Source: an uncultured cyanobacterium (GTDB taxonomy: Bacteria > Cyanobacteriota > Cyanobacteriia > Pseudanabaenales > Pseudanabaenaceae). From it: a DNA stretch of 64,000 nucleotides. The notes under the pieces were generated by a model. That model did no database searches. It had not been told where the DNA came from and saw nothing but the letters and a program-made list of their open reading frames with translations. The translations under genes were made by a program, and so were the position numbers. Position 1 is the stretch's first letter. Each line of letters starts with the position of its first letter. Location: assembly GCA_963703315.1 (NCBI GenBank), contig OY969811.1, forward strand, positions 2,528,001 through 2,592,000, read 5' to 3'. This document shows, piece by piece, positions 25,158 to 64,000 of the stretch.

Positions 25158-25324
25158 AGAATGCTATTTTCTACATCAATGCCGCAGGGTGTGCGTTATG
25201 ATTCACATCCTCTTGAACCGTCTTGCTTTGCTATATATTAGGACTTGAGCAATTCTGATATATTTACGGAAATCGCAATTCTTGCAAAGCAGATCTTTAA
25301 CTTCAGTCAGTTAACCCAAACTTC

Positions 25325-27550
25325 ATGGCTCTATCCTTTGTCGGTCAAGACTTGCGTAATCGCTCCTTTCGTGGACGTAAGGACTTAGCAGGTGCAGATT
25401 TTACAGATGCAGATCTGCGAGGTTGTGATTTTCGAGACACTATCCTAACGGATGCTAATTTTACAAATGTTATAACTGGTCAAAGTTATACAAAGTTAAT
25501 TATTGCGATATTATCAGCACTTATTAGTTCAGCTACTTTTGCTTCTAATTTTGCAATTGCTTTTACACTTAGTTTTAATGATATAGATATATCTTCAGCT
25601 AATTTTTTAGTTGCATTTACAGTATCTTTTTTGATTTCTATAATATCTATATATAGCAATATTCTATATATAGATGTATTGATTTTTTTAAATTCATTTA
25701 TTATTGTAATATTGCTTATTTCTCAATCATTTACTGCTTTTCTTGGTGGTAACATTATTTGGGGAGTATCAAATATTATTTTTAGCCTATCTTTGTTGGT
25801 TTTTGTAAAACATATATTTAGATCACTTAGAGATAATCCGCTAAATATTCAAAGCGCAGTAGGAACAGATTTTCGTTCCGCGAATCTAACTGGTGCAACA
25901 TTTGCTAATGCAAAGTTAAGACTTGTCGATTTTACAGATACGAAACATGACTTAGTTAATTGGCAAGGAGCATATACTTATTGGTGTAAATTACCATACT
26001 ATCTTAATGATAGCAAAACCAAATATTTATATCTCAATCCAGAAAAATGTAGAGCAAAAAATTATATATCAGCTAACTTTTCCAAAGCATACTTACAAAA
26101 TGCTGATCTTATTGATGCTAACTTGCTTGGCTGTCTTTTTGTGGGTACTGACTTACGTAATTCTCTGCTTGTAAATGCAAACCTAAAAAATTCAATATTA
26201 AAGGATGCTAATCTAAGTAATGCCAATCTAAGCTATACAAATCTACAAAGTACAATGTTAAATAATGCGAATTTGAATACTGTAGATCTAAGTTATTCAA
26301 ATCTACAGTATTCAAATTTAAAAGATTCAGATATATGTACTGCAAATCTTAGTAATGCAAACTTGAAAAATTCAAGTTTAAATAATACAAACTTATATGG
26401 AGCGAATCTTACAAATGCCAATCTACAAAACACTAATCTAAATAATGCAAATTTTCAATATGCTAATCTTAGTAATGCCAATCTTAGTAACACACAAGTC
26501 TTAGGCACTAACTTTACAAGTGCAAACTTAACAGGGGCTTGCATTGAAAATTGGTGGTTCAGTCCCAGTACTAAATTTGATAATGTTACTTGTGATTATA
26601 TATTTCTCAGCCAAAAGATTGATGAAAATGGTAATATCGTATATAACTCTGATAGCCGTAAGCCAGCTAATGGCAATTTTCAGCAAGGCGATTTTACTAA
26701 ACTAATTCGTCAATATTTAGATGGCTTAGACCTAATTTTTCGTGGCGACGATGATCCAAAATCTTTTGCTTTTGCTTTACAGAAGTTACTTAGCGAATAT
26801 GAAGATGCTCAAATTCAATTTGGCTCTTTGCAAAACTTAGGAGATGGTGACATTGTTTTGCGTCTTACAGTTGGAAATCCACAAGTACCTAAATCCAAGT
26901 TGCAAGCCTTCTTTACTGAGACTAAAAAAATCGCTCAATTATTTTTTTCTCAAGGAGAAAATCAAAACTTGCAAAAACTAGAAAGTGAAATTAATCGACT
27001 AAAGAAAGACCTAGCGGATAAGAATCGGCAGTTAGAGAGTAGTTTAGTAAGGACAAAACACTCCCCATCAGATAATGCTAAAGTAGGGAATAATTTCAGC
27101 CTAATTAGCGTAATTGTGCAGGACTCTATGTTTGGGAAAAAGACTGATATTAAAGCAGGTGGCGATGTTTCAGGTGTTGCAGACGGAAACATCTCAGGAG
27201 TTGCAGGTAAAGACTTAAAAGGAGTAGCAGGTAGAGATATTAGCGGACAAGTTACTATCACAATTCAAGAACTCCGTGATAGCGATACTCCCGAAGCACC
27301 AAAACTCGCTGATCTCCTGACTGACTTACAAAAAGTAATTAGCGAATCCACCGAATTAGCAGAACCTGACAAAGAAAAAGCTCTGAAATATCTGGATAAG
27401 ATTGGCAAACTTGCCAACGACAAAGAATGCGATCGCGACATGATTAGCATGGCGATCGATGGCATTCTCAACGTTGTTAGCAAAGCCGCAAAATTACTTA
27501 CCCCCGTCCAAGCGATCGCCGATGGGTTGCGAAAGATTCTACAGCTATGA
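25325..27550 (+). CDS. Membrane-anchored pentapeptide-repeat protein with coiled coil and C-terminal helical domain
   Basis: Pentapeptide blocks either side of about 3 TMs; ANLTGACIENW; GDVSGVA-type repeats. Confidence 0.88.
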   Translation: MALSFVGQDLRNRSFRGRKDLAGADFTDADLRGCDFRDTILTDANFTNVITGQSYTKLIIAILSALISSATFASNFAIAFTLSFNDIDISSANFLVAFTVSFLISIISIYSNILYIDVLIFLNSFIIVILLISQSFTAFLGGNIIWGVSNIIFSLSLLVFVKHIFRSLRDNPLNIQSAVGTDFRSANLTGATFANAKLRLVDFTDTKHDLVNWQGAYTYWCKLPYYLNDSKTKYLYLNPEKCRAKNYISANFSKAYLQNADLIDANLLGCLFVGTDLRNSLLVNANLKNSILKDANLSNANLSYTNLQSTMLNNANLNTVDLSYSNLQYSNLKDSDICTANLSNANLKNSSLNNTNLYGANLTNANLQNTNLNNANFQYANLSNANLSNTQVLGTNFTSANLTGACIENWWFSPSTKFDNVTCDYIFLSQKIDENGNIVYNSDSRKPANGNFQQGDFTKLIRQYLDGLDLIFRGDDDPKSFAFALQKLLSEYEDAQIQFGSLQNLGDGDIVLRLTVGNPQVPKSKLQAFFTETKKIAQLFFSQGENQNLQKLESEINRLKKDLADKNRQLESSLVRTKHSPSDNAKVGNNFSLISVIVQDSMFGKKTDIKAGGDVSGVADGNISGVAGKDLKGVAGRDISGQVTITIQELRDSDTPEAPKLADLLTDLQKVISESTELAEPDKEKALKYLDKIGKLANDKECDRDMISMAIDGILNVVSKAAKLLTPVQAIADGLRKILQL

Positions 27551-47618: not shown

Positions 47619-48800
47619 TAGTTTCAGTTTACGCAAATTATTGACCGCTAATGCAATCGTGCTATCTTTCTTTGCAAAGCAGAATCTCAAACCATTTACT
47701 TGTTGGCGATCGGGCTGACTAAAGCAAGTTCCTGGAACAGCCGCAACTAAAGCTTCCTTGGCTAGTCGAAATGCCGCAGTTTCTGCATCCTGTGCGATCG
47801 CCGAACTATCCGTCCAGATGTAGTATGCGCCTTTAGGAAGTACTGGTGATAAGCCCAATTCGACTAAGGCAGGATAGAGCAGATCGCGCTTACGTTTGTA
47901 ATCTAATGCCATATTTGTGAAATATTCACGTCCAAACTGCATGGCGGTAAGGGCGGCGTGTTGCAAAGGTGCAGGGGCGCAAATGGTAATAAAGTCATGA
48001 ATTCTTCGCATGGCAGCAGTTAATTCGGGATTTGCCACTGTGTAGCCCAAGCGCCAGCCTGTAATACAAAAGGTTTTCGAGAAGCCATTCACTACAATCG
48101 TGCGATCGCGCATTCCCTCAATGCTCATCAGGCTAATATGCTCTTCTTCATAAATGATGTATTCGTAAATTTCATCAGTAATTGCATAAACATCATACTG
48201 CTGACAGAGTTTGGTGATTAGTTCCAATTCTGTTCTTGTCCATACTTTACCTGTGGGATTAGCAGGGCTATTGATGATCACCGCCTTAATCCCTTTCTTA
48301 AAAGCAGGTTCAAGGATTTCTTGCGTGATTTCCCACTGCGGTGGTTGCAAAGTAATGAATTCAGGGATACCGCCAACAGTAGCCAAATTGGGAATGTAGT
48401 TTTCGTAGAATGGCTCAAAAATTAAAACGCGATCGCCTTGATCAATCAATGACATCAAGGCAATATTTAGCCCTTCCGTTGCGCCGCAACATACCGTAAC
48501 TTCAGTTTCGGGATCAACGGTAATCTGGTTATCGCGTTGCATTTTGTCAGCGATCGCCCATCGTAACTTGTCCCAGCCCCAACTATCTGCATATTGATTA
48601 AAATCTGATGCGATCGCGGCTCTTGCAGACTCTTTGAGAGCTTCTGGTGCAGGGAAATCGGGCAATCCTTGGGCGAGATTAATAGCTCCAAACTTTTCAC
48701 AATAACGGGAGGCTTCACGAATTTGTGATTCTTTAATTTGAATGGCACGTTGGGATAGCGAAACAGTAGTCAAGGGAAATATCTCTAAGCTTAGGTACAA
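47616..48800 (-). CDS. PLP-dependent aminotransferase class I/II
   Basis: INLAQGLPD, NSPANPTG, TDEIY, SKTFCITGWRLG. Confidence 0.95.
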   Translation of the reverse strand: MYLSLEIFPLTTVSLSQRAIQIKESQIREASRYCEKFGAINLAQGLPDFPAPEALKESARAAIASDFNQYADSWGWDKLRWAIADKMQRDNQITVDPETEVTVCCGATEGLNIALMSLIDQGDRVLIFEPFYENYIPNLATVGGIPEFITLQPPQWEITQEILEPAFKKGIKAVIINSPANPTGKVWTRTELELITKLCQQYDVYAITDEIYEYIIYEEEHISLMSIEGMRDRTIVVNGFSKTFCITGWRLGYTVANPELTAAMRRIHDFITICAPAPLQHAALTAMQFGREYFTNMALDYKRKRDLLYPALVELGLSPVLPKGAYYIWTDSSAIAQDAETAAFRLAKEALVAAVPGTCFSQPDRQQVNGLRFCFAKKDSTIALAVNNLRKLKL

Positions 48801-48888
48801 AACGCCTACGGCGCTGCATATAATATAGCAATAAGCCTTTATCCATTGATATAGCAGTTTTCATTTTGCCTACGGCAAAATGCATAAG

Positions 48889-49050
48889 TTACCAGATTCT
48901 CGGTTGTAAATTTCGACTATTGGCAATAATGACAGAATCTCCTGCGGGTTCAATTAGAAATAGTCCTTCTTGGGTAGCATATTCATCGGCTTTTTCATCG
49001 ATTTTTATTCCTGCTACGGCTCCATAAACTTTATAGTTTTGGGTAAGAAA
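48889..49050 (-). pseudogene. C-terminal remnant of a DUF3782-like/PD-(D/E)XK protein
   Basis: Hand translation YKVYGAVAGIKIDEKADEYATQEGLFLIEPAGDSVIIAN..QPRIW*; no start codon, directly behind the TGA of the next gene. Confidence 0.6.
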
Positions 49051-49851
49051 TCAATGGGTTGAATCGAAGACCTCAATCTCTATTAAATCTCTTAAAAAGT
49101 CCACGAAAGATTGAATTTTAGGGAGCTGAGCAGTATTGTCACTAATCCATTTGTCATCAGAAATACTTGTGGTATTGGTTTTACCAGGTTTAAGAACACT
49201 TGCTACTGTTGCTATAGTTGCCTTATCTTTGTCAAATCTCTTCCACTTTATCTCAGAGAACTGATTGATATAATCCTTAGCTCTTTGCATATAAACAGGA
49301 TAGGCAACCTCGCCGCACTCACAAATCAAAGTATCTAATACACCCTGATCTGAATTGTTTGGCAGTATGTATAGTCCTAAATTCGGTGAACCTTTCACTA
49401 CAGTGCCAGCCTGATCGGGAAAGTTCGGGAAATATTCTTTTAATTTATCGCAATATGTTTTAGCTATTTTATCAGGAGCATCTTTGTCAGCATCTAGAAC
49501 AATTCCAAAACCTGCAAAAGCCTCAGGATCAATATTTGATAGAGCATCACTTATGTTTTGAAGAACGCTATTATCTTCTCCAATCAAGTGTTGGATTAGG
49601 TTACTACCTTCCCCAACATAGATAGCTATTGACAAATCATCAGTATTCAAAATAGTTGGCATATTCAGCCTTGTGTAATACTTTTTTGTCTTTCTAGGAT
49701 TGTAAGAAGGAACAAGTGCTTGCCATAAAGATTCTAGTGGTTCTATTTCCTGATCCCAAGGAAAAAAATTTAGTAATTTACGAAAAACTCTTGCTACAAA
49801 GGCTTGGTCATGGTTACCCTCAACCACTAACAAAACACATCGCCGATTCAT
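49051..49851 (-). CDS. DUF3226-like TOPRIM-fold protein
   Basis: LLVVEGNHD, GIVLDAD, ILPNN..QG.LDTL. Confidence 0.8.
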   Translation of the reverse strand: MNRRCVLLVVEGNHDQAFVARVFRKLLNFFPWDQEIEPLESLWQALVPSYNPRKTKKYYTRLNMPTILNTDDLSIAIYVGEGSNLIQHLIGEDNSVLQNISDALSNIDPEAFAGFGIVLDADKDAPDKIAKTYCDKLKEYFPNFPDQAGTVVKGSPNLGLYILPNNSDQGVLDTLICECGEVAYPVYMQRAKDYINQFSEIKWKRFDKDKATIATVASVLKPGKTNTTSISDDKWISDNTAQLPKIQSFVDFLRDLIEIEVFDSTH

Positions 49852-51017
49852 TAACGAACCTCCATACCCAAATTTTCTCTAAGACGCTTCAATCTACTCC
49901 AATCATGTCGGACAACTTTTGTTTTTGTCTCTTTGGATTCAAGTCTGTAAAGCACTAAATCTGATGGGTTTTCATTTACAGCCAATAAAGCATCAACAGC
50001 CTCAAGGCTATGGGTAGTTGCAAAGATTTGTACATTCATTTCTTTGCTCCATTTGGCTAACCATTGAAAAGAATTTTGTAGGGCTTCAGTGTGAATAGTT
50101 GATTCGAGTTCATCAATTAGTAAAACACCACCTTTTACACTAGCAAGTTTCAGAGCAATATGAAGTAATCGACGGACACCATCACCAAATGCACTAATAG
50201 GAGTAAGTCCCAGATTTTTATGTTCAATATAAATATTGAAACGAGAAGAATTTGATTCAGGAGATAAGAGGATCGTTACATCAGATATATTTTGATCCAT
50301 CTGACTCAATAAATCTAAAACATCAGACTTAAAATCATGAAAATGAGCTTCGGAAAGCAAGCGAATTTGTCCAATATTTGAACGATATGAAGTTGGCGTA
50401 ACAATAGAAACAAGCAATCTAGGCTCTCTTTTGGCTGGTATTCGTTTAGATAAATTATTTTCCCAAAGATGATAGACTTCAGTGAAATCGGGAACCTCAC
50501 TACCAAACAGATCAAACAGTTGAGGCTGACTATCGTATAGTTCAATTCTTAAATCTAGTCCTTTTCGTATTTCTAAATTATCTTCGTCTCCAATAATTTG
50601 TTCATCTTCATCTTCACTAATCTGTTCGTCCATAAAAATGAATTGCTTTTTTCTTTCAGGAAGAAACATCTCCTCAATATCATCGTACATTGCTTTCATT
50701 TTTTTAATCGCAAATGAACCATTTCCAGATATAAGGATAGTACCTGTGTGAGCTTTTTCTTTATTAAACAGCCATCTTAGGGCATCAAGTTGTGGGGTAC
50801 GAGCATTACTATAAACATCCTCTCTTTGTCTTGCAGTGATGAGCCAAGTTCTTATGTCTAAAGGATCACAATAAATTGATAGAGCTTCAAGAACACTAGT
50901 TTTTCCTGAATTATTATCACCAACAAGCAAATTAATTTGTCCGAGGTCTTTTAATTCCAGTTCTTTTAGACCTCGGAATTGATGAATTGTGATGTTTTCT
51001 AGATTTCTAGTAGTCAT
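49851..51017 (-). CDS. ABC-type AAA_15/AAA_21 ATPase
   Basis: FRGL, NLLVGDNNSGKTSVLEAL, FGDG signature, LLIDELES..H, ATTHS; TAATG stop/start overlap with the downstream gene. Confidence 0.92.
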   Translation of the reverse strand: MTTRNLENITIHQFRGLKELELKDLGQINLLVGDNNSGKTSVLEALSIYCDPLDIRTWLITARQREDVYSNARTPQLDALRWLFNKEKAHTGTILISGNGSFAIKKMKAMYDDIEEMFLPERKKQFIFMDEQISEDEDEQIIGDEDNLEIRKGLDLRIELYDSQPQLFDLFGSEVPDFTEVYHLWENNLSKRIPAKREPRLLVSIVTPTSYRSNIGQIRLLSEAHFHDFKSDVLDLLSQMDQNISDVTILLSPESNSSRFNIYIEHKNLGLTPISAFGDGVRRLLHIALKLASVKGGVLLIDELESTIHTEALQNSFQWLAKWSKEMNVQIFATTHSLEAVDALLAVNENPSDLVLYRLESKETKTKVVRHDWSRLKRLRENLGMEVR

Positions 51018-51050
51018 TGGCTTATTTTAATGCAGCAAGACTTTTCTAAC

Positions 51051-52415
51051 TTATATCTTTTTGAGAAAGGCGATCGCCTCAACATGAGAGGTCTGTGGGA
51101 AGAAATCAATGGGTTGAAGACGGGTGAGTTGATAGCGATCGCCTTCGCATAATAATTTTAAATCTCTGGCTTGGGTGGCGGGATTACAACTGACATAGAC
51201 AAGGCGATCGGGAGCAGCCTCACGCAGATAGTTAATTACTTCGGGTTCGCAACCTTTGCGGGGTGGATCGAGGATGACGATATCGGGCTGTAAATTGAGG
51301 GTACTGATTAGCTCTTCGACTTTGCCCGTATGGAACACCACATTATCAATACCATTGAGTTCTGCGGTAAGCTTACCCTGTGCTGTTGCCTGAGGTTGAA
51401 CTTCGATCGCAATTACCTGTTTGACCTGTTCAGCTAGTGGCAAAGCGATCGTGCCAATCCCTGCGTAAGCATCTACGAGAACTTCTATGCCTTCTAATTC
51501 CAATTCTGATTCGATAATATTGAGCATCTTCTCTGCTTGCTCTGTATAGACCTGAAAGAAGGTATCGCCACGGAGACGGAAGGTTAAGCCCGCAAATTTT
51601 TCTAAGAGATAATCTTTACCCGCAATACAACGGCTTTCGCGACCGAAGATTGCATTAGTTTTATCAGGGTTGCAATTGAGGATTACACCCACAACCTTGT
51701 CGTAGCGCTCTAGCCATGTCTGAGCAAACACTCCTAAATTCGGTACGTCCCAATCACGGGTGACTAGCGTAATCAAAATTTCGCCCGTATGTCTGCCGAT
51801 ACGCAGTCCTAAATGGCGCAGTAAACCTGTGTGGGTTTTCTCATCATAGATTTCCCAACATTGGTTATGGATATCCATTTTTAGCTCTGCCAACATCGGA
51901 TCGAGGCGTTCATCTTGAGCAGGGCATTGATTGAGATTGACAATTTTATGGCTTCCCTTTTGGTAATATCCTGCTTTGAGGTTGCCATCTCGACCAGTGG
52001 CAAGGGGATAGGTAACTTTATTGCGATAGTGCAAGCTATCCTTTGCGCCAACGATAGGAGAGATTAGTTCTTCTAAAAGGTCAGCATCAAAGCCGCCGAT
52101 CCTTTGTAATGCTTGAAGAACGATGTTTTGTTTGGTTCTCAATTGGGCGGGATAGCTGACGGCTTGCCACTGACAACCGCCACATTTGTCAGCAACGATG
52201 CAGCTAGGACGGACGCGATCGCTTGATGGCGTAAGAATCTTCTCAATGCTGGCATGGGCAAAATTCTTTTTCACAAACTCTAGCTTGGCGGCAATGCGAT
52301 CGCCAGGGACAGTATTAGGGACAAAGATGGCGATATTTTCATAACGTCCCACGCCATCGCCACTATCAGCGAGGTCATCAATGGTGAGCGTAATTTTTTG
52401 TCCCTGTTGCAGCAT
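51051..52415 (-). CDS. rlmD: 23S rRNA m5U1939 methyltransferase
   Basis: TRAM N-terminus, CGGCQWQ, FFQV, DPPRKG, YVSCNPATQARD, DFFPQT.HVE. Confidence 0.95.
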   Translation of the reverse strand: MLQQGQKITLTIDDLADSGDGVGRYENIAIFVPNTVPGDRIAAKLEFVKKNFAHASIEKILTPSSDRVRPSCIVADKCGGCQWQAVSYPAQLRTKQNIVLQALQRIGGFDADLLEELISPIVGAKDSLHYRNKVTYPLATGRDGNLKAGYYQKGSHKIVNLNQCPAQDERLDPMLAELKMDIHNQCWEIYDEKTHTGLLRHLGLRIGRHTGEILITLVTRDWDVPNLGVFAQTWLERYDKVVGVILNCNPDKTNAIFGRESRCIAGKDYLLEKFAGLTFRLRGDTFFQVYTEQAEKMLNIIESELELEGIEVLVDAYAGIGTIALPLAEQVKQVIAIEVQPQATAQGKLTAELNGIDNVVFHTGKVEELISTLNLQPDIVILDPPRKGCEPEVINYLREAAPDRLVYVSCNPATQARDLKLLCEGDRYQLTRLQPIDFFPQTSHVEAIAFLKKI

Positions 52416-53806: not shown

Positions 53807-55186
53807 ATGGTCGTCACAAATCATGATTCTCCTGCAATAGAACTGAGCGATTGGACAACAGATCGAGTATTGTCTCTAGCGCCCGATCCTGCCTCTGCTA
53901 AGAATGGTAAAGGTTTGGCAACATTAAATAAATGGAGTAACTTGGGTAAAGAGCAGCAGATCATTTGGGGTGAATGCCAAGGTAGTGGGAAAGATCCCTA
54001 TCGTACACAGATAGACTTATCTGAGCCAGCATTTCGTTGTAGCTGTCCTAGTCGGAAATTTCCTTGCAAGCATGGTTTGGGACTATTGTTTCTCGTAGTC
54101 AGCCAACCTACAGTTTTAGCTAATGGAACTCCGCCTGACTGGGTAACTGATTGGATCTCCTCACGAGCTAAAAGGGAAGAGAAACAAAAGCAAAAACTGA
54201 ATCAACCTGACAAGGTGCTTGACTCAGAGGCTCAGGCAAAACGGACTAATGCGAGACTGAATAAAGTCAAGGCGGGAGTACAGGATTTACAGATTTGGCT
54301 ACATGATTTAATCCGTCAAGGTTTAACTTCAGTAAGCACAGAATCCTATAAATTTTGGGAGCAACCTGCGGCAAGGATGGTTGATGCTCAAGCTCCTAGT
54401 TTAGCAAGGCAATTGCGTGATATTCCTAGTGTTATTGCGTCTGGTGCAGGATGGCAGGAACGATTGTTACAGAAATTAGGCAAGTTGCATTTGCTATTGG
54501 AAGGATTTCAGCGTCTGGATGATTTGCCTATGGGAATTCAGGCAGATATTCGCACGCAAATTGGTTGGACCCAAAATCAAGCAGAACTAACGGAATCGGG
54601 AAATGAAAAAGCTTCTAATCATTTAGTTCAAGATGTTTGGTTAGTAATGGGACAGCAAGTAGAAACAGAAGAACGCTTACGAGTTAGTCGAACTTGGTTA
54701 TGGGGAAAAAGTAGCGATCGCTATGCCTTATATTTACAGTTTGCTCATGGTACACAACCCTTTGAGCATAATTTCATGTTAGGAACTTCTCTAGAAGCAG
54801 AACTTGCTTTTTTTGAAAGTGCTTATCCGCTTAGAGCCATCATTACCAATCGACAGAGTTCTCCATCCTCTATATCAATTCTAGACAATGGGGGATCGGA
54901 AACTATTGATTTAGCGATCGCCTCTTACAGCAATGCCTTAGTTCAAAATCCTTGGTTAGAGCGATTTCCCTTCACTCTTCAGCAGGTGATCCCCGTTCAC
55001 AAAGAGGGCAAATGGTTTATTCGCGATCGCGCCGCCCATCTGTTACCAGTATCGTCACGGTTTGAGCGTGGTTGGACGCTCTTAGCTCTAAGTGGTGGTC
55101 ATCCTGTAACCATTTTTGGCGAGTGGCATGGCAGTGATTTTTATCCTTTGAGTATTTGGGCTGAAGGGAAATTTCATGTCATTTAA
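53807..55186 (+). CDS. SWIM zinc-finger protein (YehQ-like, DUF5691-cluster type)
   Basis: WGECQGSGKDPY, CSCPSRKFPCKH, ARMVDAQAP. Confidence 0.9.
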   Translation: MVVTNHDSPAIELSDWTTDRVLSLAPDPASAKNGKGLATLNKWSNLGKEQQIIWGECQGSGKDPYRTQIDLSEPAFRCSCPSRKFPCKHGLGLLFLVVSQPTVLANGTPPDWVTDWISSRAKREEKQKQKLNQPDKVLDSEAQAKRTNARLNKVKAGVQDLQIWLHDLIRQGLTSVSTESYKFWEQPAARMVDAQAPSLARQLRDIPSVIASGAGWQERLLQKLGKLHLLLEGFQRLDDLPMGIQADIRTQIGWTQNQAELTESGNEKASNHLVQDVWLVMGQQVETEERLRVSRTWLWGKSSDRYALYLQFAHGTQPFEHNFMLGTSLEAELAFFESAYPLRAIITNRQSSPSSISILDNGGSETIDLAIASYSNALVQNPWLERFPFTLQQVIPVHKEGKWFIRDRAAHLLPVSSRFERGWTLLALSGGHPVTIFGEWHGSDFYPLSIWAEGKFHVI

Positions 55187-55222
55187 GAAGTGATATATTT
55201 GTACATCTATAAATGGGATGTA

Positions 55223-58096
55223 ATGGCTACTAACCGCGAGAAAATTTTTGAATTTATTAACTTCTGCCGATCGCATATTCAAGGCAGAGAGCGCGGTGAT
55301 GCTCAGCCATTTTTAGGAGAATTTTTTAAGGCGTTTGGCTATGAGGGAGCCTTACAAGCAGGGGCAAAGTTTGAGTTGCCAATTCCCAAATCGAGTTTAC
55401 GGGGAAATACGGGCTTTGCCGATTTGTGGTGGGAACGTCCCCAAAGTTTTGGCAGCATTATCATTGAGATGAAGTCTAAAGGCGTAAATCTGACTCAGCA
55501 TTACTCACAGGCTTGGGAATATGCTAACCATACTTATCCATCGCCAAAATATGTAATTTTGTGCAATTTTGATGAGTTTTGGATTTATGACTTTCAATCG
55601 CAAATTAATACACCCGTTGATAAAATTCGGCTGATAGATTTGGCAGATCGGTTGGATGCGTTTACCTTCATGGAATATACTACCGAAGCCCCAAAATTTC
55701 GCGATTATCAGTTACCCGTGACTTTGCGAACGGCTCAGCGTATGGGCGATTTGTTTCGGTTGCTGAAGGCGCGATCGCAAAGGGATAAGTTTAAAGAATT
55801 GGATGCTCAGTTATTGGTTTTGCAATGCGTGATGGCAATGTTTGCCGAGGATCGTAAGCTCTTACCAGAGAATATGTTTTTGGAATGTTTGCAAAGATGT
55901 TTAGGCGGAGAGAGTAGCTATGATATTTTAGGGAATCTGCTGTTTCGAGAGATGAACCAAACGGGAATCACGCCATTGGGCAAATGTAAGGGTGTGGATT
56001 ATTTTAATGGCGGCTTATTTGCGAAAACTCCAGCGATCGAGCTAAATCGTGAGGAACTGGAACTGTTGCAATTATCGGCTCAGGATGACTGGAGTAAGGT
56101 TCGTCCTGCGATTTTCGGGAGCATTTTTGAAAGTACGGTCAATGAAGCGGTGCGCCATGCGGGAGGGATTCATTTTACTTCTGAAAATGACATTATGAAG
56201 ATTGTGCGCCCAACGATTAGTCGTTATTGGGAAGAAAGAATTGAAGTTGCGAGTACAAAAGAAGAGTTGAATTCACTACAATTGGAAATGCAGAACTATC
56301 GTGTGCTTGACCCTGCTTGTGGTTCAGGAAATTTCTTGTATATGGCATATCAGGAATTAAAACAAAATGAACAGGCTTTATTAGAAAAAATTGCCAAGTT
56401 GAACAAATCGGATCAAATTGGCTTGAGTTTCGTTACGCCCTTGCAATTTTTTGGAATCGATCGCAATCCTTTTGCAGTAGAACTAGCGCGAGTGACACTG
56501 TTGATTGCTCGAAAAGTAGCGATCGATGATTTGGGGTTAAATGAACGCGCTTTACCGTTGGATACGCTCGATCAAAATATTCGTTGTCAAGATGCACTGT
56601 TGAGTGAATGGAGTCCTGCGAATGCGATTATTGGCAATCCGCCTTTCCAATCTAAAAACAAGATGCAGCAAGAGTTTGGGGCAAGTTATGTGCAGCAAAT
56701 TCGCGCTAAATATCCTGAAATATCAGGTAGAGCCGATTATTGTGTGTATTGGTTCCGTAAGGCGCATGACCATTTGCCTGAAGGTGGTCGCGCTGGCTTA
56801 GTTGGTACAAATACAATCCGTCAAAACTATTCGCGGCAAAGTGGTTTGGAATATATCGTTAAGCATGGCGGCACGATTACGGAAGCGGTATCGAGTCAGG
56901 TTTGGTCTGGTGAGGCGGTAGTTCATGTTTCGATCGCCAATTGGGTGAAGGGGCAACAATCAGGTAAGAAAAAGCTCTATCGCCAGTTGGGGGATTCGGT
57001 TGATAGCGATTGGCAAGTAACGGAACTGGATGAGATTAATTCGGCTTTGTCGGAAGAGATTGATGTCAGTGAGGCTGTGGTAATACAGGCAAATGTAACA
57101 TCAGGGGCTTGCTATCAGGGACAAACACATGGACATGAGGGATTTTTATTAAGCCATGATGAAGCATCACAAATATTAGAGTTACATCCCAATTACAAAC
57201 AAGTTCTCTTTCCATACTTGACTGGTGACGAGCTTTTATCATCGTTTCCATCAATGCCACAGCGCTATGTGATTGATTTTTATCCTAAAACTTTGGAACA
57301 AGCTAAGCGCTATAAATTGTTGTTTCAACGGATAAAAGAGATGGTTCTACCGACTAGGGAATCGGCTGCGAAAGCTGAACTAGAGCGTAACCAAGAAACT
57401 CTGAAAAATAGTCCTAAAGCTAAAGTCAATCGACATCATCAAAACTTTTTGGCGAAATGGTGGCAACTCTCCTATCCTCGTGGTGAGATGATTCAAAAAA
57501 TATCGGCAATTCCGCGTTATATCGTTTGCTGTCAAGTTACCAAACGTCCTATTTTTGAGTTTATCGAATCGGCAATCCGCCCAAATGCTGCTTTAATTGT
57601 TTTTCCTTTACCAGATGATTATTCCTTTGGAATTTTGAATTCAAGCTTGCATTGGCAATGGTTTATGGTGCGTTGTTCAACCATGAAAAAAGATTTTCGT
57701 TATACCTCAGACACGGTATTTGACACTTTTCCATTTCCCCAATCTCCAAATTTAGAAACTATGCGAGAAATTGCTAGCGCTTCCGTAAATTTACGCGCTA
57801 TCCGTCATCAAATTATGCAACAAAAAAACTGGAATCTGCGCGAGCTATACCGATCACTAGAGCAAGGAACCTGTGAACCTTTACAAATCGCTCAACAAAA
57901 ATTAGATCATGCTGTGAGATCGCTCTATGGCATCACTGAAAATCAAGATCTCTTAAAATTTTTGCTAGATTTAAACTTAGAAGTGGCGATCGCTGAAGAG
58001 CGAGGTGAACCAGTAATTAAAGCAGGATTTCCTGAAATATTTCAAGAGGCGATCGCTGAATTTATTACCAATGACTGTGTAAAAATGCCAACCTAA
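55223..58096 (+). CDS. MmeI-like type IIL/IIG restriction-modification enzyme (nuclease + amino-MTase + TRD)
   Basis: FADL..IIEMKS nuclease motif, YFNGGLF, LDPACGSGNFL, IGNPPF, RYTSDTVFDTFPFP. Confidence 0.9.
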   Translation: MATNREKIFEFINFCRSHIQGRERGDAQPFLGEFFKAFGYEGALQAGAKFELPIPKSSLRGNTGFADLWWERPQSFGSIIIEMKSKGVNLTQHYSQAWEYANHTYPSPKYVILCNFDEFWIYDFQSQINTPVDKIRLIDLADRLDAFTFMEYTTEAPKFRDYQLPVTLRTAQRMGDLFRLLKARSQRDKFKELDAQLLVLQCVMAMFAEDRKLLPENMFLECLQRCLGGESSYDILGNLLFREMNQTGITPLGKCKGVDYFNGGLFAKTPAIELNREELELLQLSAQDDWSKVRPAIFGSIFESTVNEAVRHAGGIHFTSENDIMKIVRPTISRYWEERIEVASTKEELNSLQLEMQNYRVLDPACGSGNFLYMAYQELKQNEQALLEKIAKLNKSDQIGLSFVTPLQFFGIDRNPFAVELARVTLLIARKVAIDDLGLNERALPLDTLDQNIRCQDALLSEWSPANAIIGNPPFQSKNKMQQEFGASYVQQIRAKYPEISGRADYCVYWFRKAHDHLPEGGRAGLVGTNTIRQNYSRQSGLEYIVKHGGTITEAVSSQVWSGEAVVHVSIANWVKGQQSGKKKLYRQLGDSVDSDWQVTELDEINSALSEEIDVSEAVVIQANVTSGACYQGQTHGHEGFLLSHDEASQILELHPNYKQVLFPYLTGDELLSSFPSMPQRYVIDFYPKTLEQAKRYKLLFQRIKEMVLPTRESAAKAELERNQETLKNSPKAKVNRHHQNFLAKWWQLSYPRGEMIQKISAIPRYIVCCQVTKRPIFEFIESAIRPNAALIVFPLPDDYSFGILNSSLHWQWFMVRCSTMKKDFRYTSDTVFDTFPFPQSPNLETMREIASASVNLRAIRHQIMQQKNWNLRELYRSLEQGTCEPLQIAQQKLDHAVRSLYGITENQDLLKFLLDLNLEVAIAEERGEPVIKAGFPEIFQEAIAEFITNDCVKMPT

Positions 58097-58098
58097 TC

Positions 58099-59709
58099 AT
58101 GAACGAATCTTCACTATTACAAAATGTTACTGCGATCGCCCTCATCGGAACCCAGAGACAGCCATTTACTCCCATTAGTACTGATGGCAAGCTAGGTCAG
58201 CTACTAGCGAGTGTTGATACCACCAATCAAGAGGCAGCTTTGTTAAGTACTGTGGCGATCGCCACGATGTATCAGCAAGCAGGACAACTACCAATTACGA
58301 ATTACGAATTACGAATTATTGAACCTTGTGAATTAGATGATTTACCTCGTTGTAGCGATCGCACTGGTTACTATCTATCCTTGATGCTCAGTGGTGAACA
58401 TCTGCAACTGCTACCCGAACTGCTCGATTGCCTAGCGGATCTTGGACAAAGAGTTCATGAAACTAGCTTGCCAAGTTTACTGGACTTAGGGAAGAGGCAG
58501 TCGGATGTGTGCGAGGCGATCGCTAAAGTATTGGGTAAGCGTGGGCAATGGTTAGCGGCGCAAAATTCTGAATGGAACTATGTAGCGAGTGAGGATGATT
58601 CGGTATGGGAAACGGGTAGTAAGGCGGCACGGTTAATGTGGCTCTCGCAATTACGTCGTCAAGATCCAGACCAAGCAAGGCAACTGGTAGAGTCAACATG
58701 GAAGCAGGAAAGCGCTAGCGATCGCACTGCATTTTTGGAATCATTCAGCAATAATTTGAGTATGGCGGATGAACCTTTCTTGGAATCATTGCTTGACGAT
58801 CGCAGTAAGGAAGTACGGCGCGTTACCGTTGATTTGCTGACTTGTTTGCCTGAGTCGAGATTTTGCCAAAGAGCGATCGCCAGAGTTCAGGATTTCATCA
58901 AATTACAACGTGAAGGTAATCAGCAATATTTTACGGTTGATTTGCCTGAAGTCCATACGCCTGAAATGCTGAGGGATGGGATTGAGGCGAAAAGTAATGA
59001 TAATCAAATGGGCGATCGCGCTTCGTGGTTATTGAAGATGCTGACATCAACGCCATTATCTTTCTGGAATCAGCCTTTCTGGAATGAACCTTTAGCGATG
59101 TCAATTGAGGATTTAGTGAAGATGGCTAATCATTCCCAAAGCGATCGCTTAATTCTCCAAGGATGGATTGCATCGGCTCAAAAAACAGGAAATTTAGTTT
59201 GGTTGCAAGCCTTAGTTGAGTTTAGCCAAGAGGAGGGGGTTAATCGCATTGCTGGTCAGCCTTTAGCCGATAGTCTCATATTAGACTCTCAACAACAAGC
59301 AGCAGCAATCCATCTGCTCAAAAATCCTGATTTAGCCTTTAGTAATCTTTTTAAGTCGCTTCTCTTTAAGAATAAAACAATCTGGAATGAAGAAGTAAGT
59401 GCGATCGTTCTTGAAATAATTATCACTACTCTAGATCGATTTATCAAAATTTCTCAATTAACGAGTCACTATTGGGGCATCAGTGAATTTATTCGTGATG
59501 CGGCGAAATATATAGCTCCATCGTTGATTCCTGTGGCTAAGGATCAAGCGCTTGCGGTTAGTCAAAGGTTACAGGAGCTTAGCTTGGAATCTGACAACAA
59601 AAAGGAACTTAGGGAATGGGAATATACGCAAACAACATTACATAAATCCATTAAGCAATTCATCGATTTATTGCAAATTAGACAGGAAATGTTAGAGTCA
59701 ATTGTATAA
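58099..59709 (+). CDS. DUF5691-domain protein
   Basis: ALIGTQR, LGKRGQWLAAQNSEW, WETG..R..LRR.DP, DEPFLE.LLDDRSKEVR. Confidence 0.85.
   Translation: MNESSLLQNVTAIALIGTQRQPFTPISTDGKLGQLLASVDTTNQEAALLSTVAIATMYQQAGQLPITNYELRIIEPCELDDLPRCSDRTGYYLSLMLSGEHLQLLPELLDCLADLGQRVHETSLPSLLDLGKRQSDVCEAIAKVLGKRGQWLAAQNSEWNYVASEDDSVWETGSKAARLMWLSQLRRQDPDQARQLVESTWKQESASDRTAFLESFSNNLSMADEPFLESLLDDRSKEVRRVTVDLLTCLPESRFCQRAIARVQDFIKLQREGNQQYFTVDLPEVHTPEMLRDGIEAKSNDNQMGDRASWLLKMLTSTPLSFWNQPFWNEPLAMSIEDLVKMANHSQSDRLILQGWIASAQKTGNLVWLQALVEFSQEEGVNRIAGQPLADSLILDSQQQAAAIHLLKNPDLAFSNLFKSLLFKNKTIWNEEVSAIVLEIIITTLDRFIKISQLTSHYWGISEFIRDAAKYIAPSLIPVAKDQALAVSQRLQELSLESDNKKELREWEYTQTTLHKSIKQFIDLLQIRQEMLESIV
58293..58318 (+). 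repeat. Heptamer short tandem repeat (AATTACG)x3 inside the CDS
   Basis: AATTACGAATTACGAATTACGAATTA. Confidence 0.85.
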
Positions 59710-59756
59710 CTCTTTTTGAAAATATAGATTAGCAATTGCCTTATTTGGCTTATTGG

Positions 59757-59829
59757 AAGTAGTGATATAAATTAGCGATCGCCACATCAAACAATAGTTT
59801 AACTACATCAGCTTTTAAAGCTTTATGCC
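59757..59829 (+). repeat. 73-bp direct repeat, copy 1
   Basis: Matches 60560-60632 with 7 mismatches by hand alignment. Confidence 0.9.
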
Positions 59830-59950
59830 ATAGTTTTGAGAGAACCCATTATAATCTTAAATAAGATTTCAGGAAGTCAGCATGATTGTTGAAACTAGCA
59901 ACGAATGTAGAAGCTTATCAAACATATAAATAATAAATTCGGGTATTATC

Positions 59951-60181
59951 ATGCGTAAACAGATTACTGAATATACATCGCCTCTGGATGCTTTAGTCGC
60001 TTTAACTAAGCAACTATACAGTTATGAGATTAAATATCAAACTGATTCAGCAGACTTTTTTGTGCAGTATCAACAAGGTAAGACGGATGATGATGAAGAT
60101 AAGTTTGATTGGGCGAGTAATTACCGTCATTATCTAGCTTTACGCCAAGAATTAGAGAGCAAGCTAAGAAATGTCGCGTAA
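59951..60181 (+). CDS. TumA-like antitoxin
   Basis: YE.KY..DSADFF.QYQQG..DD..D..DW; overlaps the toxin start. Confidence 0.7.
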   Translation: MRKQITEYTSPLDALVALTKQLYSYEIKYQTDSADFFVQYQQGKTDDDEDKFDWASNYRHYLALRQELESKLRNVA

Positions 60182-60578
60182 TAGTTTTAGGGATTATTTT
60201 GATCAAATAGATCAACTTTTGGAAGCTTATCCTGATGTCTATGTAGAGAATTACAATGCGACAATTCTATCTAGTGAGCGAGCCAATCTCAAACTTCGAT
60301 TGCGTTTTTATTTCCAATATTTACTTTCTATCAGTGAGGCTTTGGTTGTTGTAGATGATCAAATTACGGCGATTGATTATCGCTATCATTTCCAAGATGG
60401 ACAGAACAATCTAGTTTTTCGCTATGACAATACGCCCCATTTCCCCAATTTGTCGAGTTTCCCTCACCACAAGCATTTAGCAAGTCAAGTAATTTCTTGT
60501 AATCAGCCGAGTCTTGAAACTGTTATTCAAGATGCGATCGCTTTTCTTGAGGGATTTGAAAGTAGTGATATAAATTAG
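60171..60578 (+). CDS. DUF6516/TumE-like toxin
   Basis: YRYHFQD..LVFRYDNTPH..FPHHKH. Confidence 0.85.
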   Translation: MSRNSFRDYFDQIDQLLEAYPDVYVENYNATILSSERANLKLRLRFYFQYLLSISEALVVVDDQITAIDYRYHFQDGQNNLVFRYDNTPHFPNLSSFPHHKHLASQVISCNQPSLETVIQDAIAFLEGFESSDIN

Positions 60579-60632
60579 TGATCGCCATATCAGACGATTG
60601 TTTAACTACATCTGCTTTTAAAGATTTATGCC
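60560..60632 (+). repeat. 73-bp direct repeat, copy 2 (contains the toxin stop codon)
   Basis: Matches 59757-59829. Confidence 0.9.
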
Positions 60633-60667
60633 CCGCAGATTGAGCTTTTGCTCATAAAAATATTGAT

Positions 60668-61453
60668 TTAAGAACCTCGCAAGTGGCTAATTATAGGCGC
60701 TAAATGACTTGGCAAATCAACCGCAATAAGATCACTACAAGGTTCTATTGCAAGTCCACTAAGATGTTCAACATCTTGAACTTTTTTCGCGAGTATTTGA
60801 ATTAAAGATGCAGTCTTATCTAATTCAAATATATCCTGTGAATCAAGGACAATAATTGTCTTACCAGTTCTCGCATGAAAAAGAGCTTGTCGCAACCTTG
60901 CATCACCTAGCTTTTGTTGTCGTGATTCCTGACCTCTTTTAGGAAAACCTGAAGCACCATTCAAAGTAAAAAATATTCCTAGTCCAGTAGTACTGGGGAG
61001 ATTAATTTCCATAAGACTACATAATCTTGCAAACTGCTGATCATTTACTTGTGCCTTAGTACACTTAGCTTCAACAACAATATCTCTTTGATTATCTTTC
61101 ATATAAAGAAGTCTATAAAGAATCTCCCAATCTTCAGTATCACCACTTACGAGAAGGTCATACTGACAACTAGCAGAACGAAAACTTTTGATGCTAGTTA
61201 GTCCTCTCAGTCCACAAAATGTAAGAGCTACTATCTTCTCTAATAAATCGCCAGCATTTTTACGTTGTGTCTCTGTTGGGAATTTAATTGATATATAAGT
61301 TTTCAGTTCTTGTAAATATCCTGAAATTCTAGTGTCTGGTACATATAAATAAGATGCTATAGAGCTTCTTGCAATTTCATCTTTTGGATTTAAAACTTTT
61401 ATAGCCTTAAGTAAATTTACAATCAAGGCTCCTTGGTCTAAAGAATCTGACAT
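60668..61453 (-). CDS. Mrr-like PD-(D/E)XK restriction-endonuclease-fold protein
   Basis: GDLLEKIV, QYDLLV, IVVEAK, QFARL, GIFFT..GASG. Confidence 0.75.
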   Translation of the reverse strand: MSDSLDQGALIVNLLKAIKVLNPKDEIARSSIASYLYVPDTRISGYLQELKTYISIKFPTETQRKNAGDLLEKIVALTFCGLRGLTSIKSFRSASCQYDLLVSGDTEDWEILYRLLYMKDNQRDIVVEAKCTKAQVNDQQFARLCSLMEINLPSTTGLGIFFTLNGASGFPKRGQESRQQKLGDARLRQALFHARTGKTIIVLDSQDIFELDKTASLIQILAKKVQDVEHLSGLAIEPCSDLIAVDLPSHLAPIISHLRGS

Positions 61454-61456
61454 ATA

Positions 61457-61819
61457 TTAAATAAACTCAATAGGTTCTTTGGCTATGGCAATTACATCAA
61501 AAGACATTTCATCATAGTCTTCAATAGTTTCTCCACATTCAGGACAAGTCCAAGGTAAGTTAGGGAAACCTATCCCAAAAGGTATTGAACCTACAGATGC
61601 TTCGCTACAACTGTGATAGATAAGAAGACGATTACTGCATAGACCCGACAATCCAAGAGCAATAACAACTGCATAAGCTTGTGGTAGTTTTAATCGGAGA
61701 CTTATAACAAGCTCATGAGGCATTACTTTAGAATTTGGATTTCTAAACTTCTTACTCAGCTTTGTTTTTTGACTAGCGTCTAAGAAATTCAGTTTAGTCT
61801 CACAAGTAAATTGGTTCAT
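61457..61819 (-). CDS. Small protein with probable Zn ribbon
   Basis: HSC ... CPECG; 5-bp and 3-bp gaps to its neighbours. Confidence 0.75.
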   Translation of the reverse strand: MNQFTCETKLNFLDASQKTKLSKKFRNPNSKVMPHELVISLRLKLPQAYAVVIALGLSGLCSNRLLIYHSCSEASVGSIPFGIGFPNLPWTCPECGETIEDYDEMSFDVIAIAKEPIEFI

Positions 61820-61824
61820 ACAAG

Positions 61825-62988
61825 CTACTCTAAATTGAGTTCCGCTAATAAAAACTTTAGCACTCCAGTACTACTTCCACATTCTTGATAACACTTTAGG
61901 TGCTGTAAAGAGTCTTGGTTATTAGAAAGTAGATCTAGTCCCAAATAGCAATGTACACGAAAAAGAGTTTCAACTTTTACTTTGTTTTCAACATCCTTAT
62001 CAATATCAACATCTGGAATAGAGGCTTGTGCATCTGATATCTTTTTAAGTCTAAACTCATAGGATTTAGTTCCCCATTCTCTAATAAGAGTATGTAAAAT
62101 AGCTCTCTCAACTTGAAACAGTTGTTGCGAATCATACGGAAAAGAATAGTTCAATGAATCTAGAGCGGCTTCAGCCAAAGTCCGCGAAAGAACCTTTAAT
62201 CCTGAATCATCGATATCAACTTCATCATCATCCCCACTATGAGCATTTAAAGCTATACCTGATGATTTAGCTCTAACTCTTTTATGACTCCATTTGTATT
62301 GAGGTTTATCATACTTGTCCCAGAGTTTATAAAGAAGAAGATCTTCAAGTTCTGGATGCTCCAATTTAGCTCCAAGAATTGTTTCAAGCTCTTTAAATAC
62401 TCTTTGGATATGTAGCCAAAAAGGGAATTGGCTTCTAGAATCCTTTTTTTCTTCACTTGTATTAGAAAATCCATCCCAACTAAGCGCAACATATTTTTCT
62501 CCAACTTCAGCTATAACTGGCCATCGAATATAAGCAACTTCAAAGGTTTTAGTATTACCTTCTTCACTGTATTCTCTGGGAATAAAATGTTCTACACGAC
62601 AAGTGTAGATGTACCAAACTTTAGAGCTTGCAGGCTCTCTAATTGGTCCATACCATCCTGACTCACCAAAAGAGAAAAGTAAATCTCTAGGATTTTTGAG
62701 TTGAGGTATCTCTGAATGTTTACCTTGCATAAGAGATAGCCAAACTCTTGGTTTCTGTACATATTTAATCAGTAAGTCGTTATAGTCTAGTTCTTTATGT
62801 TCGATTGCTCCAGCTATATTAATTGCATAACCTTCTTTCGTTTTTAAGTCACTTCTTCTAAAAACATTAAAGCTTTTTAGGAAGTCAACCGTAAATTCTG
62901 GACTAGATAAAAATTTTTGACAAAAAGGATAACCTTCTAAATATCCCACATCAAGAAATGCATCTGGATTTTTTAGCTTTACAGTCAT
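61825..62988 (-). CDS. Hypothetical protein (387 aa), first gene of an AT-rich operon
   Basis: Long ORF with no motif I recognise. Confidence 0.8.
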   Translation of the reverse strand: MTVKLKNPDAFLDVGYLEGYPFCQKFLSSPEFTVDFLKSFNVFRRSDLKTKEGYAINIAGAIEHKELDYNDLLIKYVQKPRVWLSLMQGKHSEIPQLKNPRDLLFSFGESGWYGPIREPASSKVWYIYTCRVEHFIPREYSEEGNTKTFEVAYIRWPVIAEVGEKYVALSWDGFSNTSEEKKDSRSQFPFWLHIQRVFKELETILGAKLEHPELEDLLLYKLWDKYDKPQYKWSHKRVRAKSSGIALNAHSGDDDEVDIDDSGLKVLSRTLAEAALDSLNYSFPYDSQQLFQVERAILHTLIREWGTKSYEFRLKKISDAQASIPDVDIDKDVENKVKVETLFRVHCYLGLDLLSNNQDSLQHLKCYQECGSSTGVLKFLLAELNLE

Positions 62989-63175
62989 TTATTAACCACA
63001 TATCTAAATTATTAGCTATATACTAGCTTCTAAGCAAATATTTGACTATAACCAAGAGATTAACTCTTTGAAAATTTAGTTTTAATTTGCAAAGTATCAT
63101 CTTTGGGATTTAAACAAAATTAATCTCTCTGAGATTAAATATAATTTACTCAACCCCAATAACGAGGAGTTACCA

Positions 63176-63364
63176 ATGCAAACAACTAGCGAACAATACA
63201 TTGTTGATGCTCAAGGTCAACGTTTGAGCGTAGTTGTAGAATTTGACTATTATCAAAAACTGCTTGCGCGTCTAGAAGAACTAGAAGAAGTTTATGCCTT
63301 TGACCTAGCCGAAGAATCACAGGACGAAGCTATCCCATTTGCTCAAGCGATCGCTCATAAATAA
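63176..63364 (+). CDS. Orphan antitoxin-like protein, possibly truncated
   Basis: GAGGAG RBS; QYIVD.QG....VV....YQ.LL..LEELE; no toxin follows. Confidence 0.6.
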   Translation: MQTTSEQYIVDAQGQRLSVVVEFDYYQKLLARLEELEEVYAFDLAEESQDEAIPFAQAIAHK

Positions 63365-63369
63365 TCATC

Positions 63370-63642
63370 ATGATCAAACAAATCACTCTAGAAGTCGAAG
63401 CGCCCATCGCCGACGCATCCCAAAATGCCACCCCAGAAAATCGTCAAGCACTACAGGCGATCGTTAGCCTATATCTAAAATCTATATCTATTCCACCTCA
63501 GAAAGAGATTGTACCCAACCAAGATATTCCTAACAAAAAGCCAAAACGCACAACACCAAAGCATCTAGCTGGAAAAATCGAAATTCTAGGCGATATTGTT
63601 AGTCCGATCGTAGATGAAGAGGATTGGGAATGTCTGAAATAG
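63370..63642 (+). CDS. VapB-like antitoxin
   Basis: C-terminal LAGKIEILGDIVSP..DW; overlaps the vapC start. Confidence 0.7.
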   Translation: MIKQITLEVEAPIADASQNATPENRQALQAIVSLYLKSISIPPQKEIVPNQDIPNKKPKRTTPKHLAGKIEILGDIVSPIVDEEDWECLK

Positions 63643-63870
63643 TAATTCTCGATACCCACATCTGGATTTGGTATGTCAACGAAAACTTCGAGCAAATTCC
63701 TACACAGTGGTTAGAACAAATTCGGTAAGCAGATATAGTTGGAGTGTCAGCAATAAAGAGATCCCTTCGATCGCCTAATCATCGCCACTGCCTTAGAATA
63801 TGGCGCAAAACTTGCCAGTGTTGACAGCTTATTTTCTAAATATCCTGAACTTGAGAATTACCTAATGTAA
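63630..63870 (+). pseudogene. VapC/PIN toxin pseudogene
   Basis: MSEIVILDTHIWIW.. then TAA at 63726; after VSAI a deletion/frameshift jumps to RDPFDRLIIATA..LASVD. Confidence 0.85.
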
Positions 63871-63960
63871 ATTAGCAACACTCATGATTCTAAACATTCT
63901 GTTAAAATGAATCAGATCAAAAGACTAAAGGGAACTTAACTCCCTTGATCGTATATTTCT

Positions 63961-64000
63961 ATGAATACGGAAAAACCAGCCAAAACATCTAAAACCGCCA
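63961..64000 (+). CDS. Possible start of the next gene (MNTEKPAKTSKTA...)
   Basis: ATG with an open frame to the window end; only 13 codons visible. Confidence 0.3.
   Translation, partial: MNTEKPAKTSKTA

Follow-up and report, generated by a model that had tools for sequence, protein, structure and literature searches.

The small subunit of R.BspD6I and the cleavage domain of FokI are nucleases without a DNA-recognition part of their own, and the Type IIS restriction-modification (RM) systems to which they belong include a methyltransferase and a sequence-reading domain. The Type IV enzymes Mrr, MspJI and AspBHI possess a Mrr-type PD-(D/E)xK fold without a cognate methyltransferase, and are single polypeptides in which a modification reader is fused to the nuclease. 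GAPS4 is a two-gene (or fused) system that forms a 2:2 complex and is triggered by DNA damage; GAPS4a belongs to the PD-(D/E)xK enzymes and carries the non-canonical motif HGxD-SxK at its N-terminus, and for GAPS4b a ring around double-stranded DNA is predicted (PMC13748975). A further group of interest consists of RdgC, lambda RexA, Iml3 and Chl4, which according to PMC11077077 have one fold in common and bind DNA non-specifically as ring- or horseshoe-shaped dimers, RexA being the DNA-binding half, and the sensor, of a phage-exclusion system. Here we analysed a stretch of 64,000 nucleotides (nt) from an uncultured cyanobacterium of the Pseudanabaenaceae (assembly GCA_963703315.1, contig OY969811.1, positions 2,528,001 to 2,592,000 of the forward strand; the whole stretch is referred to as the window), which contains a cassette of three adjoining genes, named A, B and C. 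This cassette is a conserved and undescribed unit, plausibly of the sensor-plus-nuclease kind, for which defence is a likely function and the roles within the unit are less certain. The cassette is arranged as follows:

61825-62988, minus strand: gene A, 387 amino acids (aa), from the open reading frame (ORF) list
61457-61819, minus strand: gene B, 120 aa, from the ORF list
60668-61453, minus strand: gene C, 261 aa, from the ORF list
62989-63175, minus strand: intergenic region upstream of A, presumed promoter of A-B-C

In line with the preliminary description of this locus, the ORF list gives three tightly coupled genes on the minus strand, with 5 nt between A and B and 3 nt between B and C, while the flanking genes on both sides are located on the plus strand. 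No significant match was obtained for A, B or C in Pfam, NCBIfam, PADLOC-DB v2.0.0 or PHROGs, which bears out the earlier remark that no named system could be recognised. No paper describing the cassette was found in the literature searches made, although the supplementary tables of other defence-discovery papers could list its genes. A methyltransferase or NTPase, both already noted as missing in the preliminary description, was not detected in A, B or C by the Pfam, NCBIfam and PADLOC scans either; the nearby AAA_5 ATPase gene belongs to a host operon (see below). Compared to R.BspD6I and FokI, the cassette is thus devoid of a methyltransferase, and its A and B proteins are unrelated to the components of those systems. 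With the Type IV enzymes C has the Mrr-type PD-(D/E)xK fold and the lack of a cognate methyltransferase in common, but it has a short helical N-terminus in place of a fused reader and is accompanied by two obligatorily linked partner genes. An identity as a Type II or Type IIS RM system was considered and rejected, as there is no methyltransferase in A, B and C and the adjoining MmeI-type gene is a separate insertion.

Among known systems, GAPS4 is the closest analogue in function, although membership of the cassette in this system is not supported. Like the cassette, GAPS4 combines a PD-(D/E)xK nuclease with a larger partner, which is predicted to encircle DNA in GAPS4 and may do so in the cassette; it is devoid of a methyltransferase and an NTPase, and is found in mobile islands. 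It consists of two genes or a fusion, without a zinc-ribbon protein, whereas three genes make up the cassette in 41 of 46 loci. The HGxD-SxK motif of GAPS4a lies at the N-terminus, whereas C carries a canonical E72/D99/E128-x-K130 motif in the middle of the protein. Moreover, the GAPS4 homologue table contains, among the matches listed, one cyanobacterium and no Nostoc (PMC13748975), whereas the cassette is common in Nostocales. A protein-language-model search with A returned the label "GapS4b family" at rank 9 (score 0.94) and in 6 of 30 matches, with PF26110 on 26% of the members; the recognition value of A in this search was low (1738), so that this score is weak evidence. NCBIfam gave no match for A or for 30 of its distant relatives, the inclusion of a GapS4b model in this library being unconfirmed.

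Predicted properties of the three proteins

The AlphaFold model of C, built from an alignment of 42 sequences, had a pLDDT of 86.6 and a pTM of 0.82. It displays the alpha-beta-beta-beta-alpha-beta core of the PD-(D/E)xK superfamily, in which the E...D...(D/E)xK residues are found on helix 1 and on strands 2 and 3: the catalytic residues E72, D99, E128 and K130 map to helix 61-80 and to strands 98-104 and 124-130. Together with Q97, these four residues are invariant in the 42 sequences, and the E...D...ExK motif that had been read from the single protein in the preliminary description is therefore a feature of the whole family. In an exhaustive VIA-align comparison the closest folds were those of the small subunit of R.BspD6I and of the cleavage domain of FokI (PDB 2p14, 2ewf, 2fok), with which C has a sequence identity of 10-13%. 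A Foldseek search of the model against PDB gave nothing at E ≤ 0.001, a profile search of PDB sequences with C nothing meaningful, and PADLOC-DB v2.0.0 a chance-level match to Cas5b only (E 0.039). The Pfam model Mrr_cat (PF04471) did not match C at E values up to 1, while in the protein-language-model search 23 of the 30 clusters nearest to C were Mrr_cat-bearing groups; the likeness to Mrr is thus one of fold and of language-model score, and C is not a detectable member of Mrr_cat. The N-terminus of C forms a short helical region, in which no DNA-reading domain could be recognised. Judging from the model and the intact catalytic residues, C is very likely to be a functional Mrr/FokI-type nuclease.

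For A, the model (43 sequences) reached a pLDDT of 90 and a pTM of 0.88. Foldseek against PDB yielded nothing at E ≤ 0.001, the best matches being CENP-N (E 0.012) and RdgC (E 0.09), and the six best matches obtained with VIA-align all belonged to the RdgC/CENP-N/Chl4/CENP-L family. Against viral models Foldseek produced nothing significant, with phage RdgC models recurring among the weak matches. At the sequence level, Pfam RdgC (PF04381) found no match in the whole genome, while E. coli rdgC was recovered in the control genomes; when the A profile was aligned with E. coli RdgC by hhalign, the probability was 0.4%, and a profile search of PDB sequences with A returned nothing meaningful. An RdgC/RexA/CENP-N fold for A, without sequence relation to the RdgC family, is moderately supported by the model, and by analogy with the proteins of this fold A would bind DNA.

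Further features of A were inspected as well. A SAP domain at its N-terminus was rejected, since it appeared only below threshold in one distant member (P0313) and in none of the 43 members of the alignment. The extensions of longer A homologues (428-525 aa) contained no Pfam or NCBIfam domain and revealed no informative fusions. Towards the C-terminus, residues 346-366 include a conserved cluster (H346-C347-Y348 ... D359 ... H363 ... C366), which might be a metal site, with both cysteines replaced in a few members.

The alignment of B (30 sequences) comprises an N-terminal segment, 'MPHxLA..LG......A..IL..L', followed by 'LLIYHxC ... LPWxCPxC ... FD'. H69, C71, C92 and C95 are invariant and would form a four-ligand, zinc-ribbon-like metal site, which extends to the family the HxC...CPxC motif pointed out in the preliminary description. 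Two independent sub-threshold matches involve archaeal TFE-alpha, a protein composed of a winged helix and a zinc ribbon: residues 87-118 matched the NCBIfam TFE-alpha model (E 0.049), and residues 25-63 matched PDB 6kf4_G (TFE-alpha; E 0.62). On the basis of these similarities B is probably a small winged-helix/zinc-ribbon protein. Homology to C2H2 fingers was rejected, as the PDB profile match was restricted to the 'PYxCPxC' knuckle and remained at the motif level. In summary, of the sensor, adaptor and nuclease that had been proposed for the three genes, the nuclease stands, given the Mrr/FokI-type fold and intact catalytic residues of C, while a sensor role for A and an adaptor role for B are roles that we only infer.

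Conservation, distribution and neighbourhoods of the cassette

A set of 51 loci from species-representative genomes was compiled, of which 46, extending 1300 nt or more past A on its downstream side, were used for gene-order counts. A, B and C occurred in the same order and on the same strand in 41 of these 46 loci, and in 34 of the 36 with a near-full A, so that the homologues do keep the three-gene order on which the preliminary description had laid weight. The two exceptions with a near-full A are decayed copies, one with a 71-aa remnant of C (L040) and one with an insertion sequence (IS) (L048); in L049 an IS lies between a truncated A and C, and L056, L061, L009 and L010 have decayed as well. 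In the Microcystis-type loci L010 and L060 a truncated A is joined in frame to a TnpB-like (IS605 OrfB) protein at the C-terminus of the latter (L010 1492-2097), with B and C intact, which is a further case of cassette decay by IS insertion. The possibility of swapped effectors in loci without B or C was examined and rejected, such loci being decayed or IS-disrupted copies.

The matrices of pairwise distances computed for A, for B and for C from 33 cassettes were correlated with r = 0.95-0.96, a value reached by none of 2000 permutations. At the level of sequence comparison this shows that the three genes have been inherited and exchanged together, with shared ancestry contributing to r. Word-indexed homologue searches retrieved 122 proteins for A and 142 for C, almost all cyanobacterial and all unnamed or annotated as "hypothetical"; for B only 11 matches were retrieved, owing to a limit of the index; with tblastn, B is detected between its two neighbours at almost every locus. 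When the profile of A was run against 1.84 billion representatives, 242 proteins of 350-420 aa were found at E ≤ 1e-3, 220 of which were below 1e-10. The A family is thus sharply bounded and does not merge into a larger family. Fused forms of the cassette were not seen among the homologues listed.

A is present in 9 of 401 sampled cyanobacterial genomes (8 of 155 genera), and the copy in a genome of the same genus (G308) is only 43% identical. In the tree of A, the copy of the window groups with those of Pseudanabaenales, Phormidesmis and Synechococcales (support 100/100). Three loci were found in non-cyanobacterial metagenome-assembled genomes (two labelled as delta proteobacterium, one as Myxococcota); in a Myxococcota sample of 301 genomes the only match was the seed genome itself (G417). 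Among 72,556 plasmids one carries the cassette, a 35.8-kb mobilizable Nostoc plasmid in which it adjoins mobC and a relaxase gene, and in which RefSeq annotates all three genes as 'hypothetical protein'. In two IMG/VR contigs (GC content 64%) A-B-C has a baseplate gene on one side and an integrase gene on the other, a position usual for prophage accessory genes; these contigs are prophage-like. Finally, RNA-library contigs from three studies covered parts of A and B of relatives that are 95-99% identical, other parts of the stretch being uncovered, which hints weakly at expression of the operon in natural settings.

The neighbourhoods of the cassette were annotated in 20 loci. Several contain defence, toxin-antitoxin (TA) or mobile-element genes: a type I RM system (L023); SMODS+SLATT, Mrr_cat and a short integrase (L030); PIN, ParE, MazF and Fic (L016, L024, L035 and L051); Mob_Pre, DUF4238, a Cas4-like gene and a NACHT-like ATPase (L027); and an integrase with a Dsr1-like protein (L012). 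Uma2 is found near the cassette in L028, L038 and L044, and IS elements nearby include IS21 (L045) and IS605 TnpB (L015). In 6 of the 20 loci, all from Nostocales and from several genera, the cassette is located directly downstream of alaS. This fixed position across Nostocales genera suggests that the cassette has been retained there for a long time.

Insertion of the cassette into a host operon

In the window, the cassette is part of a block that interrupts an operon-like row of host genes encoding a SWIM zinc-finger protein, DUF5691, AAA_5 (MoxR-like) and DUF5682. The features around it are the following:

55190-58096, plus-strand flank: MmeI-type type IIG/IIL RM gene (library matches)
58099-59709, plus-strand flank: DUF5691 gene (library match)
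59710-63960 (about 4.2 kb), between DUF5691 and AAA_5: inserted block with TumA/TumE, C-B-A, a RelB-like ORF and a 90-aa ORF
59951-60578, plus-strand flank: TumA/TumE, also PADLOC candidate PDC-M44A/B (library matches)
63176-63364, plus-strand flank: RelB-like ORF (weak library match)
from about 63961: AAA_5 ATPase gene, part of the interrupted host operon and not of the cassette

The type IIL RM gene and TA modules mentioned in the preliminary description could thus be recognised as the MmeI-type gene, TumA/TumE and the weak RelB-like ORF. Three genomes of the same genus are informative on the history of the site. In G408, DUF5691 is directly followed by AAA_5 (93.5% identical) and DUF5682. 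No RM gene separates the SWIM gene from DUF5691 in G407 and G406, where the two abut; the MmeI-type RM gene is therefore a separate, extra insert in the present genome. At the spot between DUF5691 and AAA_5, G407 carries a type IIG RM gene other than that of the present genome, along with two small ORFs, and G406 a 1002-aa protein and a PDC-S03 candidate; as relatives carry other defence genes at this spot, the cassette is located in a variable hotspot. These comparisons support that the cassette was acquired horizontally, in an insertion that relatives lack or fill with other defence genes. Of the "recently acquired" module of the preliminary description the acquisition is thus retained, given an insertion absent from relatives, while "recently" is doubtful for the family in general, considering its retention next to alaS in Nostocales.

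The host row (53807-64000, and beyond the right end of the window) has been split twice by imported DNA, at the SWIM/DUF5691 and DUF5691/AAA_5 junctions. Just past the right end of the window lie further conflict-type genes, namely a PDC-S09-like nucleotidyltransferase/HEPN pair and, after it, the gene for a TPR-CHAT protein of 1202 aa. Terminal repeats bounding A-B-C were not found in the window. A 77-nt direct repeat with 90% identity (59753-59829 and 60556-60632) brackets TumA/TumE and may be the footprint of the insertion of this TA pair; its second copy overlaps the 3' end of tumE, and one copy is also present downstream of DUF5691 in G407.

The base composition of the cassette is atypical, as the preliminary description had noticed on seeing an AT-rich block without HIP1 sites. 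The GC content is 0.346 for A, 0.358 for B and 0.349 for C, compared to 0.417 for the whole window. The HIP1 octamer GCGATCGC occurs at 132 sites in the window, against 0.9 expected, and is absent from 60541 to 63347; this gap of 2813 nt is the longest of the 133 gaps in the window. A Poisson model expects 0.41 such gaps per window, so that the gap over the cassette is suggestive and not decisive alone. Four further HIP1-free gaps, of 2.2-2.5 kb each, are present in the window, one of which (55771-57986) lies inside the MmeI-type RM gene, and another (48610-51070, GC 0.363) contains the PDC-M38A/B gene pair. With an RM gene and the PDC-M38 pair inside other gaps, a lack of HIP1 sites tends in this window to go with imported defence genes. 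The pair itself, at 49051-51017, consists of a DUF3226 protein and an AAA_21/AAA_15 ATPase that match the PADLOC candidate PDC-M38B/A, and shows an AbiLi-like similarity. The gap at 25122-27429 (2.3 kb) has the lowest GC content among the long gaps (0.338).

Regarding the expression signals of the cassette, sigma-70-like hexamers are found upstream of A at 63074-63045. The scan for the sigma-70-like consensus gave 10 sites against 10.6 expected, and the promoter and terminator scan was not above chance. On either side of this candidate promoter, within 63055-63128, stand the two arms of a perfect inverted repeat of 9 bp, AGAGATTAA / TTAATCTCT, which could be a putative operator for the winged-helix protein B. 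Rfam gave no RNA family within 59600-64000.

Possible functions of the cassette

The horizontally transferred cassette may act as a nuclease-based defence (exclusion) system against incoming DNA, a reading whose chances we judge to be roughly even. An anti-phage function is suggested by the genomic context and by the analogy with GAPS4, whose logic the cassette would share while being built from unrelated or very distant parts. According to this mechanism, A, as a dimeric, DNA-encircling protein of the RdgC/RexA/CENP-N-like type, would bind DNA as a sensor or platform; B would be either an adaptor bridging A and C or the regulator of the operon; and C would cut DNA only once recruited to it or released, in the manner of the small subunit of R.BspD6I and the cleavage domain of FokI. 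The target of C would be the DNA of the invader or, in an abortive-infection mode, the cell's own or all DNA. A more specific version is tentative and distinctly less probable: an anti-phage system in which a dimeric clamp A of the RdgC/RexA/CENP-N fold senses invading or broken DNA and the TFE-like B licenses the recognition-less, FokI-like C, the GAPS4 principle having been reinvented.

Several points weigh against a defence function. PADLOC, with candidate systems included, has no model for the cassette, and no homologue of A was found in the 50,697 phage records of INPHARED. In 6 of the 20 annotated loci no TA, RM, defence or mobile-element gene was present among the ORFs scanned, and the enrichment of such genes around the cassette is qualitative. 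The stable position next to alaS also fits a retained cellular function. Moreover, that A, B and C bind one another and that they act against phages is something we infer only.

Among the other explanations, it is unlikely that the cassette is a distant, three-gene variant of GAPS4, in which A would be a diverged GAPS4b ring and C the nuclease, and which would sense breaks and degrade DNA non-selectively. "GapS4b family" clusters do occur among the language-model neighbours of A, and the two-part logic of a ring-forming DNA binder and a PD-(D/E)xK subunit is the same in GAPS4 (PMC13748975). The recognition value behind these neighbours is low, however; NCBIfam is silent on A and its 30 relatives, RefSeq has 'hypothetical protein' for the plasmid copy, and the A family is sharply bounded. 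The canonical mid-protein motif of C, the extra zinc-ribbon gene and the near-absence of cyanobacteria among the matches listed in the GAPS4 homologue table also stand against such a variant. A rather small probability is assigned to a modification-dependent, Type IV-like restriction system, in which recognition of a DNA modification or a sequence would fall to A and/or B, and cleavage of the foreign DNA thus marked to C. The Mrr-type fold of C and the lack of a methyltransferase would suit such a system, but no SRA, YTH, SAD, DUF-type or other known modification reader was detected in A, B or C, the nearest folds of A are non-specific DNA binders, and Mrr_cat has no match to C.

The genomic setting of some copies invites another explanation, that of a maintenance or DNA-processing module of mobile elements, acting through addiction (with the nuclease as toxin and A/B as antidote or regulator), control of recombination or repair, or competition between elements. 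The plasmid copy lies beside a relaxase gene and ParB/ParA genes and the prophage-like copy beside an integrase, TA genes often adjoin the cassette, decayed copies are common, and RdgC-fold proteins modulate recombination (PMC11077077). Most copies are nevertheless chromosomal and without a recombinase in the cassette, no terminal repeats bound it in the window, and three genes including a conserved 387-aa protein would be unusual for a TA pair, which makes this explanation rather unlikely too. The stable alaS position across Nostocales genera in turn argues against a purely selfish element. That same position, in 6 of 20 annotated loci, and the annotation of RdgC as nucleoid-associated and recombination-related would be compatible with a lineage-specific housekeeping module of cyanobacteria for DNA repair or the nucleoid. 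With A in 9 of 401 cyanobacterial genomes only, plasmid and prophage copies, frequent pseudogenisation, and an atypical composition and operon insertion in the present genome, a housekeeping role is very improbable.

Whatever its function, and although it has remained unnamed, the cassette is a coherent unit: at 50% identity it amounts to about 240 clusters, and its exchange has involved cyanobacteria, a plasmid, prophages and a small number of further phyla. Enzyme engineers, too, may take an interest in a FokI-like nuclease subunit whose recruitment would fall to separate partner proteins. If the cassette is a defence system against incoming DNA, it would represent a new type of sensor, with an RdgC-like fold, and a new three-part architecture for nuclease-based immunity. 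The RdgC fold, already used by lambda RexA, would then be tied to a second kind of bacterial immunity, and the cassette could be set naturally beside GAPS4 and RexAB to compare the ways in which DNA-encircling proteins detect infection. Such a system would be found mostly in cyanobacteria, whose phage defence is less characterised experimentally.

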